This document shows positions 49,133 to 56,620 of a DNA stretch of 64,000 nucleotides, one piece after another. The DNA comes from Candidatus Marinacidobacterales bacterium. Its GTDB lineage: Bacteria > Acidobacteriota > Vicinamibacteria > Marinacidobacterales > SMYC01. The position numbers and the translations under genes were made by a program. The stretch lies in contig OZ250169.1 of the NCBI GenBank assembly GCA_965237955.1, forward strand, positions 6,624,001 to 6,688,000, written 5' to 3'. Within the stretch, counting starts at the first letter, position 1. Every line of letters begins with the position of its first letter. The notes beneath the pieces were generated by a model. It saw only the letters and a list, made by a program, of their open reading frames with translations. It made no database searches and was not told where the DNA came from.

Positions 49133-49336
49133 ATGGGATACGTGACAAAGCTGCAGGTGATCAAGCGAGCCAACGACACCCGTCAGTTCTATGTGATTTG
49201 CCCGTCACCTTTAGCCCAGGCGCTAGAGATGGAGCCGGGCGAGGAGCTGGAGTGGGTGGTGGAGGATCGAAACACACTGATTGTGCGTCGGACGCCTAAG
49301 GCAAAGCGTGGGAGGAAGCGGGGTAAACGTGGGTGA
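49133..49336 (+). CDS. Small AbrB/SpoVT-like DNA-binding protein carried by the IS1182 element
   Basis: MGYVTKLQVIKR...QFYVICPSPLAQALEMEPGEELEWVVED; promoter TTGACT-18-TAGAGT. Confidence 0.7.
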   Translation: MGYVTKLQVIKRANDTRQFYVICPSPLAQALEMEPGEELEWVVEDRNTLIVRRTPKAKRGRKRGKRG

Positions 49337-49899
49337 TAAGCAAACGTCACTTCCAGGCTTTCCGAGTCCGCGAAAACGCAGCGATGGTGATGACGGCGAT
49401 GAGGGAGCGCGCGTGACACAAGCTCGGTTGAAGGTGGTCGATAGGGCGCAGCTGCTGCTGCGGACGGTCGACGTGGAGCGTTTGATCCCAGAGGATCACC
49501 CAGCGCGTGCGATCTGGGAGTTCGTGGGTCGGCCGGATCTCAGCGGGTACACGGATCAAGTCCGCTCGGTCGCGGGTGGCGCAGGCCGGCCTGCGTTTGA
49601 TCCTCAGCTACTGGTGAGCCTGTGGGTCTACAGCTACAGCCAAGCCGTGAGTTCGGCCCGCGCGGTTGAGCGGCTGTGCGAACATCATCCGGCGTATCAA
49701 TGGCTCAGCGGAATGCAGAGCATCAGTGCGCACACGCTGTCGGACATTCGGATGATTCATAGGGAGATCCTGGACGAGTTGTTTGTGCAAGCTCTGGGAG
49801 TTCTGAGTTCGGACGGATTGATCACGCTCGAGCGAGTCATGCTGGATGGGACGAAGGTGCGCGCGAACGCTTCGTCGAGTGGATTTCGCCGCAAGCCGA

Positions 49900-51344
49900 G
49901 GAGATGCCCCTGAGATAGTTGAAGGTTAGGAGTGGCGGCTCCTAAGGCCGGGTTCGATAGAATCCGGCTGTGAAGGAAAAAGAAAGGAGCCACCACGATG
50001 TCAAATTACCAAATCATCGATGCGAAGAACAGGAAGAAGCTTCGAGAGATACTGAGCTCGAAGGGGCAAGCTCTGTTGCCGTTCTTGGATGCGATTGAGC
50101 GAACCGAGATAGCGATCGACGAAGTGATCGACGTTGCTGGCCGAGCGACGATCGAAGCGGTCTTGGATCTGTCAGCCCAAAGTGTGGCTGGGGAGAAACA
50201 CCCGGGGAAGAAGGGTAGCGATGTTCGCTGGCACGGCCGGCAGGGTGGCGTAGTAAGCCTTGCGGAGCGGAAGTTGAGAGTGAGCCGGCCACGTCTGCGG
50301 CGTAAGGGAAAGGCAGAGGGAGGGGAGGTTGCGATTCCTGCCTACGAAGCGGTGAACAACTCGTCTCGGCTGAGCCAACGCATCTGGGAAATCCTGATGC
50401 TGGGTGTGTCGACGCGCAAGTACGCGTCGGTTCTTCCCGAGATGGCGGAGACGGTAGGGGTTAGCAAGAGCGAGGTGAGCCGTGAGTTCGTGGAAGCAAG
50501 CGCGGAGCAGTTGCAGGGGCTGATGGAGCGTCCGCTGGACGAGCTGGAGATCGCGGTCGTGTACCTGGACGGGATTCGCTTCGGCGAGCACCACGCGCTG
50601 GCGGCAATCGGCGTAGATACAGAGGGATACAAGCATGTTCTGGGGCTTCGGGATGGAGCATCGGAGAACCAGATAGTGTGCAAGGCGCTGCTGGAGGACC
50701 TGGTCGAACGAGGCCTGAGCCCAGAGCGGTGTCGGCTGTTCGTGATCGATGGCTCCAAGGCGCTACGGGTCGCCGTCGACGCTGTGTTCGGTACCCACAA
50801 CAAGGTCCAGCGTTGCAGGAAGCACAAGGAGCGCAATGTGCTCGGTTATCTGCCGCAGGAGCTGAAGCCGCAAGTGCAAGCGAGCCTGCGTTCGGCCTGG
50901 CAGCTCCCAGCAAAGAAGGGCAAAGCGCGGTTGGAGCAACAGGCGAAGTGGCTCGAGGACGACTACCCCTCGGCGGCGGAGAGCATCCGGGAGGGGCTCG
51001 ACGAGATGTTCACCATCAACGAGCTCGACCTCCCCGCATCTCTGAAACGCTGCCTTGGATCGACGAACATCATCGAGTCGTGCTTCAGCGGTGCGCGAGG
51101 TCGTACCCGTCGCGTCACCCGCTGGCGCAATGGCAAGATGGTTCTGAGATGGGCCGCTTCGGCTCTGCTCGCCACGGAGAAAAATTTCCGTCGTATCATT
51201 GGATACCAATCGCTACCGATCCTCGAAGCGAAGTTAGCGGAGGTCACTGAGAATCAAGCGCTCGACAAGCACGCCAAAGTCGGGTAAACCATGTGTCAGG
51301 AGCCGCCACCACCTCGAACCTCCAACTATGCTGGGGGCACCTCC
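49900..51344 (+). mobile_element. IS256-family element, copy 2 (1445 bp, 8-bp TSD CAAGCCGA)
   Basis: Near-identical to copy 1; TSD at 49892-49899 and 51345-51352. Confidence 0.95.
49998..51287 (+). CDS. IS256-family transposase
   Basis: 429 aa; two aa differences from copy 1 (H4Y, FGVHH/FGEHH). Confidence 0.95.
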   Translation: MSNYQIIDAKNRKKLREILSSKGQALLPFLDAIERTEIAIDEVIDVAGRATIEAVLDLSAQSVAGEKHPGKKGSDVRWHGRQGGVVSLAERKLRVSRPRLRRKGKAEGGEVAIPAYEAVNNSSRLSQRIWEILMLGVSTRKYASVLPEMAETVGVSKSEVSREFVEASAEQLQGLMERPLDELEIAVVYLDGIRFGEHHALAAIGVDTEGYKHVLGLRDGASENQIVCKALLEDLVERGLSPERCRLFVIDGSKALRVAVDAVFGTHNKVQRCRKHKERNVLGYLPQELKPQVQASLRSAWQLPAKKGKARLEQQAKWLEDDYPSAAESIREGLDEMFTINELDLPASLKRCLGSTNIIESCFSGARGRTRRVTRWRNGKMVLRWAASALLATEKNFRRIIGYQSLPILEAKLAEVTENQALDKHAKVG

Positions 51345-53436
51345 CAAGCCGACGGTCGAAGAGTGTCTGGAGCAGGCGCGTGAGGCGGTAGAGACTCTCA
51401 ACGCCCAGACGGAGGAGGAATCGAGCCGGCAGATGCAGGCAGCGCAGCAACGCGCCAGGCGAGAGAGACAGGATCGTCTAGAATCAGCGTTGAAGGAGTA
51501 TGACAAGCTGAAAGCCGCGAAAAGCCGCATAGACCGCGTGAGCACGACCGATCCCGACGCGCGGGTGATGAAGCAAGCCGAGGGCGGCTCCGCACCTAAC
51601 TACAACGTCCAAGTCTCAACGGATGCCGCACACGGCCTGATTGTCGACATCGATGCCACGCAGGCCGGTAGCGATTATCAGCAGCTGACGCCGGCCATAG
51701 AACGGATTGAGCAGAGCATGCAGCGTGCGCCCGAGCAGATGGTCGTAGATGGAGGCTACATTAGTAGCAACAACATCGCGGAGATGGCGAAGCGCGGCAT
51801 CGATCTCGTCGGCCCCGACCACGAGAACAAGGCAGCAGAGGCCAATCGGCGCAAGTCGTATAAGCACCACGGCGTGAAAGCGGAATACGAGGCGTCGAAG
51901 TTTGTCTTCGATACGCAGACCAACATGTATGTGTGCCCGCAGGGCAAGCACTTACGCTACGACGCCAAGCAGGAAAGCCATGGCACGATGCGCTATCGAT
52001 ATAAGGCGTCTAAGCAAGACTGCCAGACGTGTCCGGCCAAAGAGCAGTGTTGTCCTCGTACGCAGCACGGCCGCTCGATCGAGCGGCGCGAACTCTTGCC
52101 CGACATAGCCGCGTTCCGGAAGAAGATGCAGACCGACGAAGCCAAGGCCATCTATAAGACACGCTCGCAGGTGGCCGAGTTTCCGAATCTCTGGATCAAA
52201 ACCAAGTTCGGCCTGCGGCAGTTTAGCGTGCGCGGAGTCGCCAAAGTGCGCATTGAATCTCTGTGGGTCGCCCTCACCTACGATATCTTGCAGTGGATTC
52301 GCCTCCGCTGGAGGCCGAAGATGGTATCGACACTCGTGCCGACGTGAGCGCGTTGAGCACACGCAGCCCGACTTGTTAAAGCGCTAGCAATACGCACCAA
52401 CGAAACGCCGATACGATATCGGGTGAATCCGTACCGCGCGGACCCGACCCCCTAGTTGACAGAAGTGTGGACCAACCATCCCCATCTCCCTTGGGAAACG
52501 CGATTTTTTCTCACGTCCGGAGTCACCCTCGGCGAGGAAGCGCTTCACGTCATCGAGCTCCGGTGCCTCGCCACTCGGAGACTCTCCAGCCAGAATCGAC
52601 TCTTGCGCGTACGAGTCCAATACCTTGCGGACCAGTTTTTGGAACAGCTCGTGCGATCCGTAGACGTCCGCGCCGACGAGCTCACCGTCGATGGCAACCA
52701 CGACACCGATGGCGTCGTCGTGTGCAACCACTTGCGGCAAGAGAATCTCGACGTAGTCCGCACGCTTGGCCTTGAGCGTCTCGTTGTCGACGATCGCGCT
52801 ATAAGTGCCGGAGGCGGACAAGCTCGGAGACGGCGCCGCCACGTAGGTCGCAACTTGCGCCTCGGTCTCGGCAACCGCGTTCCAGACGCCCCGCTGGCTT
52901 TGCTCGGCCTGGATGGTTCTTTTGAGCGCCGCGCCGCTCACCATGGCGTCGCTCAGTGAGAACGCCATGCCACTGGCGCCGTCCGCCGCCCACCGGCCGT
53001 GCTCGACACAAAACGCGTCGATGGTGACCGGCGTCGACCGCGGCGGAAGAACGACATCGGTGGCGATGGTGCGGTCCTGCTTACCGCCGCGGATGACGTC
53101 GCCAACGTGAAGGAACAGAAACTCGTCGGAGCCGTTCTCGACCTCGAGCGTGTTGACCTCGCCGCTCCCGCGCTCGCGGACTTTGACGGCCCCGCTCTTC
53201 AAACCTTCGTCGAGAGTGATGTAGGACCGCGTGTCAGCCTGCGGACCGTGCACCACGTAGACCGCGAGCTTCCCGTGAGTGTAGGGTCCTTCGACTTTCG
53301 GGGGCGCCATGATCAGAAACGCCGCTAGGACAGAAATAGAGTGCATGATTTCCTCCCGGGCGGCGGCGCTCTCTGGAGTATAGACACACGCCCCGCCTCA
53401 AAGGTCCTACTTCGGGAGGAGGGAGATTATTCCCTA

Positions 53437-54619
53437 GTCCCCTGGAACAGAAAAAGCTAGACAACACCGGCCCTTCTGTGATCTGCTAAATGCATGAAAC
53501 ACAAGGGCCGGCGAAAAGCCGAATTGAAGCTGTCGTCTCAAGAAAGCGAAGCGCTGACGCGACTGGCGCGACGCAGCCGTAGTTCGCCGCACCAAGCCTT
53601 CCGAGCGAAGATCGTGCTGGATTGCGCGGCGGGTCTGACGAATATGGAAGTTGCTAGGAAGATGCACACCATGAGGAGCACGGTGGGCAAGTGGCGAAGA
53701 CGCTTTGTAGAACAACGAATGGAAGGGTTGTACGACGAACCTCGGCCGGGAGCGGCTCGCAAAATCGGCGATGACCAGATCGAGGAAGTCGTGACCAAGA
53801 CGCTGGAGACGACTCCAAAGGGGAGAACCCATTGGAGTACGCGCTCGATGGCCAAGCATCTTGGGCTGAGTCATTCGACGATTGGACGTATTTGGCGAAC
53901 GTTCGGGCTTCAACCGCACCGCTCGGAATCGTTTCGTCTCTCGCAAGACCCACAACTGGTCGAAAAAGTACGCGACGTTGTTGGCCTGTATATGAACCCA
54001 CCGGATAACGCGGTCGTCCTGTGCGTCGACGAGAAATCGCAGATTCAAGCGCTCGAGCGTGCTCAACCTGTCCTGCCCATGAGCTTGGGCCAGCCCGAGC
54101 GACAAACCCACGACTACATTCGGCATGGAACGACTGACCTGTTTGCCGCACTCGACGCCGCAACAGGTGAAGTCTTCGGAAAGTGCTACGCGCGACATCG
54201 AGCGCTAGAGTTCAAGAAGTTCCTCGCTGAGATCGAAGCAGCCGTTCCCAGCGAGTTGGACATCCACGTCGTGCTCGACAATCTCGCCACGCACAAGACA
54301 CCGGCGATCAAACGCTGGCTTTCCAAGCGACCTCGGTTCCACTTTCACTTCACACCGACACACGCCTCTTGGCTCAACTTCGCTGAGCGCTTCTTTGGCT
54401 TGCTCACCGAACACGCCTTGCGACGAGGCTCGCACACGAGCGTGCCTCAGCTCCGCGTTGCGATACAAGACTATCTCGATGCTCACAACGAGAACCCAAA
54501 GCCGTTCAAGTGGACGAAATCCGCCGACCAAATCCTCGAAACCATCGCTCGGTTCGCCCAGCGAACGCTCGATACACATGGCAAATCGAATTTGGACAGT
54601 AATTAAAGATCCGGGGGAC
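53437..54619 (+). mobile_element. IS630-family element (TA duplication)
   Basis: Ends TA-GTCCCCTGGA / TCCGGGGGAC-TA. Confidence 0.88.
53494..54606 (+). CDS. IS630-family transposase
   Basis: [42 protein letters not shown]. Confidence 0.95.
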
Positions 54620-54657
54620 TAGGGAATGGGAACCAGCCGCTCGAGCTCGTCGAACCA
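54619..54657 (-). pseudogene. Displaced original 3' tail of the kinase/propeller gene (WFDELERLVPIP*)
   Basis: 13 codons that continue ...VVLN from 56250 if the IS110 is removed. Confidence 0.7.
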
Positions 54658-54677
54658 GGATCGAAAAACATCTATCG

Positions 54678-55955
54678 TCATGCTGGATCTCCCCGTAGAG
54701 AAGGCTCGATGTGATATCCGAGTTTGCGCAGGTCGCGGATCATATTGGCAATGCGTCGTTTGGAGCGCGCGCGGCTAACGTCGGGGCCACGTTCCTCATA
54801 GTCAACGCCCTGGTGGAGAATCTTCCAGATTAAACGACACAACCGATGGGCAACGGCCCAGATGGCTTGCGCGTGCCCCAGGCGTGGAACCAACCGCCGG
54901 TACACGAGCTGGAAGAAACTCCCTTTGGTCTTGACGGCCGCGTTGGCGGCTTGATTGAGGAGGCGGCGCATCGGCCGACTGCCTTTGGGCGAGCGATGGC
55001 TGTAGCTTTTGCCGGCGCTTTCGTGCTCTCCGGGGCACACGCCCACCCAGGACGCGAGGTGCTTGGCCGACGGAAACGTCTCGGCGCTCGCCCCGACTTC
55101 CGCGATGATCTGCTGCGCCGAATCCACGCCGAGCCCAGGCACTTCAGCGAGTCGTTGCACAGCTGCTTGATGCTCGCCGAGCAGATGCGCCATCTCTTCA
55201 TCGAGTTGCGCGCTCTGCTCTTCGAGCAATCGTAATTCCTCGAGCGTCATTTGCACGAGCTTCCGATAGACGGGGTTGAGATCGGCACACGCGCCGAGCG
55301 CATCGCACAACTGCTCGGGCGTGGCACGCAATCGACGGTCGGCCAACTCCGCCAAGCGGGCCGGCTCCGTTTCCCCGTCCGCCAAGGCTTGCAACATCCG
55401 CCGCGCACTCAGCCCCAGAAGATCCGACACCAGGCTCGACAACTTTAGATGCGCTTCCTCCAGCAACGACTCTAGGCGGTTTTGGAGCTGAACCCGGTTA
55501 CGCGTGAACTGGTACTTGCGGCGCATCACCGTTCGCCACAGGCGCTGCTCCGGCTCGGGAACGAAGCTTAGAGTCAGCTCCTGCGCCACCAAACGCTTCA
55601 CCAATCGTTCGGCATCCGGAAAATCCCGCTTCCGACCCCGCGCGCCGCGATTCGACTTTGCTTGCGCCAGATGCAAGTTGCCCGACTGCGCACCCGCGCC
55701 CGGCCGAGCTCGGCACTGCGGAGCCCAGGACCGCTCCAACGCCTCCCACACCGGGCGCCAATATTGCGCGGTCGATTCCATCACTACTTCATCGACCCCC
55801 TCGGCCACCAGCCACTCCGCCAGAGCCCGAAGCTCACTCGGTCTCGTGCCCACACGCCGGCGCGAAAACTTATACTCACCCTCTACTGCGATGTCGGCGA
55901 CCACCACCGCCAGCATCTTCTTGTGAACGTCTATCCCAGCAATCCGGTTTGGCAT
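54678..55955 (-). CDS. IS110-family recombinase/transposase
   Basis: GIDVHK, MESTAQYW, RKRDFPDA (DEDD RuvC-like), VPGLG, SWVGVCPG..ESAG (catalytic Ser); SD GAGGAGG. Confidence 0.95.
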   Translation of the reverse strand: MPNRIAGIDVHKKMLAVVVADIAVEGEYKFSRRRVGTRPSELRALAEWLVAEGVDEVVMESTAQYWRPVWEALERSWAPQCRARPGAGAQSGNLHLAQAKSNRGARGRKRDFPDAERLVKRLVAQELTLSFVPEPEQRLWRTVMRRKYQFTRNRVQLQNRLESLLEEAHLKLSSLVSDLLGLSARRMLQALADGETEPARLAELADRRLRATPEQLCDALGACADLNPVYRKLVQMTLEELRLLEEQSAQLDEEMAHLLGEHQAAVQRLAEVPGLGVDSAQQIIAEVGASAETFPSAKHLASWVGVCPGEHESAGKSYSHRSPKGSRPMRRLLNQAANAAVKTKGSFFQLVYRRLVPRLGHAQAIWAVAHRLCRLIWKILHQGVDYEERGPDVSRARSKRRIANMIRDLRKLGYHIEPSLRGDPA

Positions 55956-55964
55956 CGCTCCTCC

Positions 55965-56170
55965 TCATCGCCGCAGCGGAGCGCGTGCTAATCAACTTCA
56001 TTAATCAGGATCTCAGGCTCGCACCGTGGACAAAGCGCTCACGGCGACGCCTACTTATTCGCTCTACCAACGCACACGCCGGATCAGCCAGTTGAACGGT
56101 CTCAACGGCCCCACTGGTTCGTCGATCTCACCGCTCCGGACCGCACCAGTCTGCCTTAACCGGAAATGTT
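55965..56170 (-). ncRNA. Candidate IS110 bridge RNA
   Basis: Structured non-coding end containing CGAACCAG (56121-56114) and TCAACTGG (56095-56088), which match the insertion site, and GATCCTG (56012-56006), complementary to the element end. Confidence 0.7.
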
Positions 56171-56210
56171 TTTCATGTTCTTTCGCGAGCTGCGTCCATC
56201 ACATCCCCAC

Positions 56211-56360
56211 TCAATTCACCGGAACCAGCCTAAGCAGCTCTTCGTGCCAGTTGAGCACGACGTTTATCTGCTCGGTCGGTCGCTCGACGCGGAGCATGAG
56301 AAAGCGCTGACCGTCCGCGCTCACGTCGTAGTCCGGCGGATTGACAGTTGCTCGGGGCGA
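56211..56360 (-). pseudogene. 3' remnant of a Ser/Thr kinase-TolB-like beta-propeller gene
   Basis: YDVSADGQRFLMLR...INVVLNWHEELLRLVPVN*. Confidence 0.75.
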
Positions 56361-56620
56361 TCGGTTGTCGCGGAAAGAACCTCGACAATTAGACAGGGGC
56401 GCTCCTTGAAGTAAGACTCCCGGTCATCGGAATCGCAAGTGACGAATACGTCCGGATAGTAGTAGACGTCGGCCGCTCGGACGCGGACCTTCATGTCCGC
56501 CATGAAAACACGACAAGGCCGACCGCGGAGGTGCTCGCGGAGTCCGGATGCGATGTTCAAAGAGATGATCTCCTGGACCAGGTGCTCGTCGCGCACTCGC
56601 TCGAGAGATGGATCTCCCAG
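56360..56620 (-). pseudogene. Truncated Uma2-family endonuclease
   Basis: ISLNIAS..RPCRVFMADMKVR..YYYPDVFVTC..PCLIVEVLSATTDR, then lost. Confidence 0.75.

Follow-up and report, generated by a model that had tools for sequence, protein, structure and literature searches.

The stretch of 64,000 nucleotides analysed here (the window) contains an IS110-family element on its minus strand. We consider it probable that the predicted bridge RNA of this element matches the Asn|Trp codons of a kinase-beta-propeller gene family, and that an in-frame tail of 12 codons likely keeps the invaded host protein working. The guides match the DNA assigned to them and covary with it across relatives, the core common to both junctions is 2 nt long, the targets form a recognizable gene family, and the replacement tail is conserved. 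Insertion would take place at a C-terminal codon of the host gene, where the left end of the element would supply the tail and likely spare the host protein.

The element, its ends and its relatives

The body of the element measures 1590 nt from TG core to TG core (54658..56247, minus strand), as delimited by copies in the same genome and by a metagenome contig. The ten copies in its own genome are at least 99% identical and have different flanks, which fixes the ends independently of the guides; the metagenome contig, of 1605 nt, spans exactly 54650-56254. The non-coding left end, of about 290 nt, lies upstream of the gene, and the right end comprises about 20 nt. The left core TG (56248..56249, minus strand) forms bases 1 and 2 of the host Trp codon, and the right core TG (54656..54657, minus strand) was placed by junction comparison.

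The original prediction, made from the window's sequence, had located the flanks correctly (54651-54658 and 56251-56254) and proposed a 4-nt CCAG core. The identity between left and right junctions, measured over 63 loci, is 0.68 at position -1, 0.86 and 1.00 at the two core positions and 0.30 at +1; because it drops outside both TG positions, the shared core is the 2-nt TG and not CCAG. The proposal of an IS621-like subtype with a CCAG core agrees with the presence of CTGG at both ends of most copies in the genome, but not with these junction identities, and the extra G that adjoins the core in the window completes the Trp codon as its third base. We regard this proposal as highly improbable.

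No end-to-end circle joint was seen in four DNA runs taken as contigs, and the tandem copies that exist in the genome are an indirect sign of a circular intermediate at most. One of these is a four-copy tandem array (L212, G000:C1:5882274-5889015) with a captured left flank of 142 bp, in which one junction is tail-less and joined at an internal TG. IS110 elements are described as taking up flanking DNA and building tandem arrays with flexible boundaries (10.64898/2026.08.14.744561, accessible portion), and the captured flank and the tail-less junction of the array agree with such flexibility.

The recombinase gene (54678..55955, minus strand) encodes 425 aa with a DEDD RuvC-like domain (PF01548) and a Transposase_20 domain (PF02371). 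The protein passes the NCBIfam model for IS110 RNA-guided transposases (NF033542) at 211.5 bits, against a cut-off of 140, and reads GVCPGEHESAG where the IS1111 group has GL-P----S(T)G. For comparison we aligned the left ends of 79 genome and 80 metagenome loci whose transposases are 67-86% identical. The covariation sets comprise 150 loci with an intact scaffold, or the 125 of them with a strict right-end motif, with 25 omitted; six tandem right flanks were also removed, and the left boundary in 98 short-ended loci was placed by a hairpin motif. On a quick tree with an unreliable root, the elements that bear a tail cover about 70-87% transposase identity. This tree, from which 69 short-end rows were thinned out, has a long outgroup and no IS1111 references, and it does not settle the number of tail origins.

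A predicted bridge RNA with covarying target guides

The predicted bridge RNA occupies 55971..56139 (minus strand) and consists, in the consensus fold, of an outer stem enclosing a target-binding and a donor-binding domain. In this two-loop fold, derived from 30 relatives, 20 of the 39 base pairs have changed on both sides, and none of 500 shuffles scored as high. The alignment was used for folding in place of a single sequence, which gave a z of 0.25 for the non-coding end and no improvement on shuffles. The Rfam search of the predicted RNA returned no match, and a sigma-70 scan called no promoter. Outside the calls of that consensus scan, a weak promoter candidate, ATGAAA and CAGACT separated by 17 nt, stands just 5' of the predicted RNA (56148-56176, minus strand), and a similar spacing is found in several of the tail-bearing relatives. 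Four RNA runs taken as contigs cover parts of the element, although such contigs are unable to show a transcript.

The original prediction had singled out two 8-mers, CGAACCAG at 56121-56114 and, 18 nt later, TCAACTGG at 56095-56088, as target guides. Both are present at these positions, and when the non-coding end was resampled 200,000 times with a first-order Markov model, the two occurred together once. The 5' target guide CGAACCA (56115..56121, minus strand) is complementary to the core and right flank on the sense strand, and the 3' target guide TCAACTG (56089..56095, minus strand) is identical to the left flank and core. Among relatives, when the 5' arm is compared with the reverse-complemented right flank, 189 of 275 positions agree over 55 distinct guides, against a mean of 76 and at most 104 after shuffling; in the 98 short-ended loci, 240 of 250 positions of the 3' arm agree with the left flank over 50 distinct guides (shuffled 80). 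The controls in which guides and flanks were swapped stayed at chance (73 vs 71 and 69 vs 63). The two 8-mers thus covary with the flanking DNA across relatives that are 67-86% identical; had they remained constant in homologues with different targets, their role would have been contradicted, and instead they change along with the targets. Judged by this covariation, the target guides are genuine. The worry that TCAACTGG might pair internally concerns a pairing outside the conserved fold: the inner hairpin of the target loop is, in the consensus, TGG with CCG, and the internal pairing of TCAACTGG is therefore not conserved.

The 3' target guide is followed by a handshake-like dinucleotide GC (56087..56088, minus strand) that equals the two bases with which the left end begins, in agreement with what is described of handshake guides in IS621 (PMC13626964, accessible portion). 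The dinucleotide equals the start of the left end in 82 of 92 loci, a figure that is partly circular in that boundary placement gave such a match a small bonus, and in 14 of the 15 tail elements. A handshake sought behind the donor guide does not vary with the right flank.

A flipped target orientation, from which a distinct subtype had been suggested, is real: the 5' target guide pairs with the top strand. The order alone does not define a rare subtype, however, because the seekRNAs of the IS1111 group have the same order; the accessible part of PMC11187229 gives the top-strand-first order for these seekRNAs and the opposite one for ISEc21. By analogy with IS621, the RNA would be expressed and would guide the recombinase, but in the guide order of the IS1111 type. 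In seven relatives (L082, L096, L107, L108, L127, L029 and L015) the 3' target guide is the family's own right end, GACCCTG, and several of these elements stand directly behind the right end of another copy, which looks like self-targeting.

The target gene family

The target consists of the Asn|Trp codons in a motif conserved at the C-terminus of Ser/Thr-kinase-beta-propeller genes. In a scan of twelve long host frames, all 12 contain PD40 propeller repeats and 11 a kinase domain. When homologues of the host family were collected with a query that carried an element tail, 100 of 120 ended in the motif, with E4 in 99 of these, L5 in 100, V9 in 92, P10 in 98, F2 in 72 and L6 in 7. In an AlphaFold2 model of the propeller region of one host (mean pLDDT 92), whose fold resembles TolB, the junction falls after the last strand and before a helix formed by residues 352-359; this confidently predicted helix is the tail.

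In the window the host gene survives as a kinase-beta-propeller remnant (56250..56423, minus strand) of 58 open codons that ends with VVLN at the junction, and the displaced original host tail, WFDELERLVPIP*, forms the right flank of the element (54619..54657, minus strand). A truncated Uma2-family gene (56321-56596, minus strand) adjoins the kinase remnant, and at 56343-56345 two public runs have one base fewer, a possible assembly error. At the other junction the stop codon of the transposase overlaps an ATG in frame with the displaced tail, so that a peptide of 20 aa is possible (54619-54681, minus strand); this spacing is kept in many relatives and may merely reflect the length of the right end.

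Seven of ten right flanks in the genome of the window encode family tails. Of 401 genomes belonging to the same class, 13 contain matches to a sequence pattern for the present guide class; one of these (G229) has seven such matches and 85 tail sites in 4.6 Mb. One perfect 12-nt target stays empty. In a sister clade (L078, L148, L059, L027 and others) the targeted Asn|Trp codons belong to another C-terminal motif, DDFRNWLIREAA*, and the short left end of this clade often reads WL, with a stop at codon 13. One tail-bearing element (L156, tail WKHELKQRVPTR) has an altered target guide and is inserted at a Tyr|Trp junction.

Replacement of the host C-terminus

The frame 5' of the window's left junction reads ...INVVLN and continues inside the element with WHEELLRLVPVN*, a replacement tail of 12 codons and a stop in frame with the host gene (56211..56249, minus strand). 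At all eight left junctions listed for this genome the tail is identical. Fifteen distinct element tails from relatives all keep the frame, the 12 codons and the pattern W-x-x-E-L-x-x-x-V-P (W1, E4, L5, V9, P10); one element with a short end and a tail that is just loosely similar (L003) stands outside the 15. Synonymous codons are used at L5, V9 and P10 among these tails, and their pN/pS is 0.60 in frame as against 1.06 and 0.99 in the shifted frames, a modest value obtained from related sequences. The spacer 3' of the tail stop ranges from 7 to 58 nt across variants. Every left flank of the 22 tail-bearing loci parsed in other genomes ends V/L-x-N in frame, and the 18 right flanks parsed in tail-bearing relatives comprise 15 displaced tails of the W-x-x-E-L/I type, two shorter related ones and one that is unrelated. 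Where enough flank was available, a host frame of at least 850 aa runs into the tail in 10 of 19 loci, whereas 9 of 19 are broken upstream. Among the other clades no replacement tail is as clear, the clade that targets FRNWL giving WL and a stop at codon 13.

An alternative explanation is that the tail is a neutral captured flank, in which case half-match reactions would repeatedly take the neighbouring host tail and the conservation would mirror that of the source hosts. Such capture, together with tandem arrays, is what 10.64898/2026.08.14.744561 describes in its accessible portion, and the genome's own array has both the 142-bp captured flank and a tail-less junction. Two elements (L001 and L002) bear host-like WFxELERLVP tails where the nearest relative has WHEELL, and some tails are identical to a host tail at 30-31 of 36 nt. 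Host genes with natural WHEEL and WHQEL (His-2) tails occur, so repeated recapture could mimic selection. In the genome of the window the hosts are also mostly broken: six filled hosts were examined, of which three are near full length but frameshifted, one is the remnant in the window and two yielded no hit. The empty sites there fare little better, with just 1 of 18 intact, which indicates that the host family in this genome is decayed or mis-assembled. Neutral cargo would be expected to decay, whereas exactly 12 codons are kept in 15 of 15 element tails, compared with 13 of 19 displaced host tails, next to a spacer that is free to vary. Leu6, which is rare in hosts (7 of 100), occurs in 6 of the 15 element tails, encoded by four different codons in elements 70-87% apart, and Phe2 is found in 2 of 15 element tails as against 72 of 100 hosts. 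These differences from the hosts favour inheritance under constraint, and a neutral flank appears to us an unlikely explanation. If the tail does spare the host protein, selection against breakage of host genes likely kept it once captured, and codon 2 mostly avoids Phe, whose codon would rebuild the target.

Double tails were observed at 18 sites in one genome (G229, L213-L231), where an element-type tail is followed after 0-8 nt by a near-constant host-type tail. The first tail has Leu6 at 15 of these sites, and two rows resemble one duplicated region. No double-tail sites were found in four other genomes. The double tails may be scars left by loss of the element body, or the product of local duplication, or a mobile mini-cassette.

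Donor recognition

The sequence GATCCTG, previously read as a donor guide at 56012-56006, covaries with the right end across relatives and is the 3' donor guide (56006..56012, minus strand), identical to the right end and core. This arm agrees with the right end at 363 of 370 positions in 74 pairs, compared with 330 after shuffling. The closing stem of the second domain, formed by GCGTGTGC at 56079-56072 and GCACGCGC at 55988-55981, had likewise been located correctly. The earlier work identified no convincing left donor guide, and none showed at the terminus: when all columns of the RNA were scanned against positions +1 to +10 of the left end, only the handshake column stood out, and none tracks +3 to +10. 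Further inside, however, a candidate 5' donor guide GCGAA (56058..56062, minus strand) is identical to a left-end site GCGAA about 60 nt from the terminus (56182..56186, minus strand). We discarded the idea that the 5' donor arm pairs with the right end, since TTCA variants of the right end leave the arm unchanged.

The internal site lies beside an inverted repeat of 9 bp, whose left copy (56166..56174, minus strand) is 73 nt inside the left core and whose right copy (54663..54671, plus strand) is 5 nt from the right core. A 7-mer of the repeat covaries between the copies (333 of 364 vs 303 when shuffled; 52 distinct pairs, 114 of 119 loci). When the GCGAA arm is compared with the site at a gap of 7 nt (2+5) from the internal repeat, the mean identity is 0.92, and it does not exceed 0.42 at other gaps; it was measured in 105 of the 150 loci, the parser having dropped 45. 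When either strand of the circle junction is folded to minimum energy, the two repeat copies pair and the left terminus is looped out. The internal GCGAA match beside a covarying inverted repeat suggests a folded-back donor. The donor would fold back on its inverted repeats, and both donor guides would read one and the same (antisense) strand.

Alternatively, the donor could be an ordinary duplex with one working RNA guide, a half-match, in which case the GCGAA site and the inverted repeat would be protein-binding or promoter elements. This possibility bears on the donor step alone and would not conflict with tail replacement. For IS621, recognition of the donor by a half-match has been reported (10.64898/2026.08.31.748434, accessible portion), and with wobble pairs allowed the permutation test gives 263 matches against 259.7, a value reached by 29 of 5000 shuffles. 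The covariation of GCGAA is thin because GCGAA is nearly invariant: 4 of 55 distinct variants have changed on both sides, in three clades, and perhaps three of these changes are independent. One locus (L096) breaks the match, and one clade is mismatched at the first base. Against an ordinary duplex, the fixed spacing of 2+5 nt mirrors the right end in 105 loci, the changes in the three clades are compensated, and under strict pairing the test gives 251 of 275 against 242.3, with none of 5000 shuffles as high. We hold the half-match reading to be a serious possibility, though one of less than even probability.

With a folded donor, the left terminus would lie in a loop whose length is free to vary and measures about 20 nt in most relatives and 45-95 nt in the lineage of the window. 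Such freedom could, we propose, have allowed this lineage to capture a host tail. A further step would be to regard the lineage as an exchanger of C-terminal tails, with a folded single-strand donor and a coding cassette in its loop that is swapped onto kinase-propeller genes on entry and can be left behind on partial excision, so that the double tails of G229 would be scars. We put this forward as a speculative scheme, and a rather doubtful one.

Comparison with known systems

The element resembles IS621 and IS622 (ISCro4) of the IS110 group in having DEDD and Tnp domains, an RNA in a long left end and a two-loop fold (PMC11208160; PMC13626964; 10.1101/2025.05.14.653916; here and below, as given in the accessible portions of the sources). 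In both cases guides for the two target strands overlap at a 2-nt core, and a handshake-like dinucleotide follows the 3' guide. The 425-aa protein matches ISCro4 weakly, however (E 6.8e-7). The core is TG, where IS621 has CT, and the guide order is opposite to that of IS621, in which the bottom-strand guide lies 5' of the top-strand guide. The 5' donor guide matches an internal site, whereas the donor guides of IS621 pair with both termini beside the core. Unlike IS621 and IS622, the element has an asymmetric inverted repeat of 7-9 bp, a protein-coding target and a replacement tail.

With ISEc11, ISKpn4 and ISPa11 of the IS1111 group (PMC11187229) the element shares a top-strand complement 5' of the bottom-strand match and an inverted repeat of at least 7 bp. 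Its non-coding region is upstream, however, and not downstream of the gene as in IS1111, and its transposase has 425 aa as against 330-350 aa. In the IS1111 group, sub-terminal inverted repeats of 7-17 bp lie close to either end; here a covarying 7-mer (9 bp in the window) has its left copy 73 nt inside. The element thus mixes traits, since it combines an IS1111 guide order with a non-coding region upstream of the gene and a length within the range of the IS110 subgroup. It is a genuine IS110-family bridge-RNA element that, by the defining features of those groups, belongs neither to the IS621 type nor to the IS1111 group. ISEc21, another member of the IS110 family (PMC11187229), likewise has an upstream RNA and is directed to conserved codons of one protein family, the IS3 transposases, but its guide order is opposite to that of the window's element and the accessible text describes no replacement for the gene it interrupts. 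The closest named element in a plasmid search is ISArsp3, likened by its transposase alone, an IS110-family enzyme of similar length that is 34.5% identical.

Incoming elements that rebuild the end of the gene they enter, as here, are described among integrase elements: ICEclc (PMC5812530) and Tn5253 in rbgA (PMC8571831), and likewise IMEVchUSA3 in dusA and SXT in prfC (10.1101/2021.06.18.448947). Those elements are guided by proteins, tyrosine or serine integrases, and depend on homology between attP and attB in single-copy genes. In contrast, the element in the window is an RNA-guided IS of 1.6 kb with a DEDD recombinase and a 2-nt core, and the gene family that it enters has as many as 85 tail sites in a genome. 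We found no report of an IS110 element that carries a replacement protein tail or targets the kinase family, in the accessible portions of these sources or of 10.1101/2025.10.25.684509, 10.64898/2026.10.21.760802, 10.1101/2024.04.26.591405 and 10.64898/2026.03.19.712850; element tables and ISfinder could hold the clade. Within this material the new part is the target-repair cassette, restoration of a gene on entry being otherwise described for integrase elements only.

The findings suggest that, by repairing the gene that it interrupts, an RNA-guided IS may find a safe harbour in a large protein-coding family. They also point to a bridge recombinase with a left donor arm that tolerates free sequence beside the core, a requirement of scarless in-frame C-terminal tagging, and if the tail-exchanger scheme is true, the element would be a natural programmable editor of protein ends that works in frame. 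The reversed guide order and the internal donor guide provide natural compensatory variants for the question of a folded single-strand donor, which has been live since the copy-and-paste preprints of 2025-2026.

Neighbouring mobile elements

Other mobile elements were also noticed in the window. An IS630-like element (DDE_3, 53434-54621) ends at the TAG stop of the displaced host tail. Farther away, at 49281-52347, a transposase gene of the Mutator/IS256 type (49998-51287) splits a second transposase, of which a DDE_Tnp_1_6 part is found at 51328-52347.
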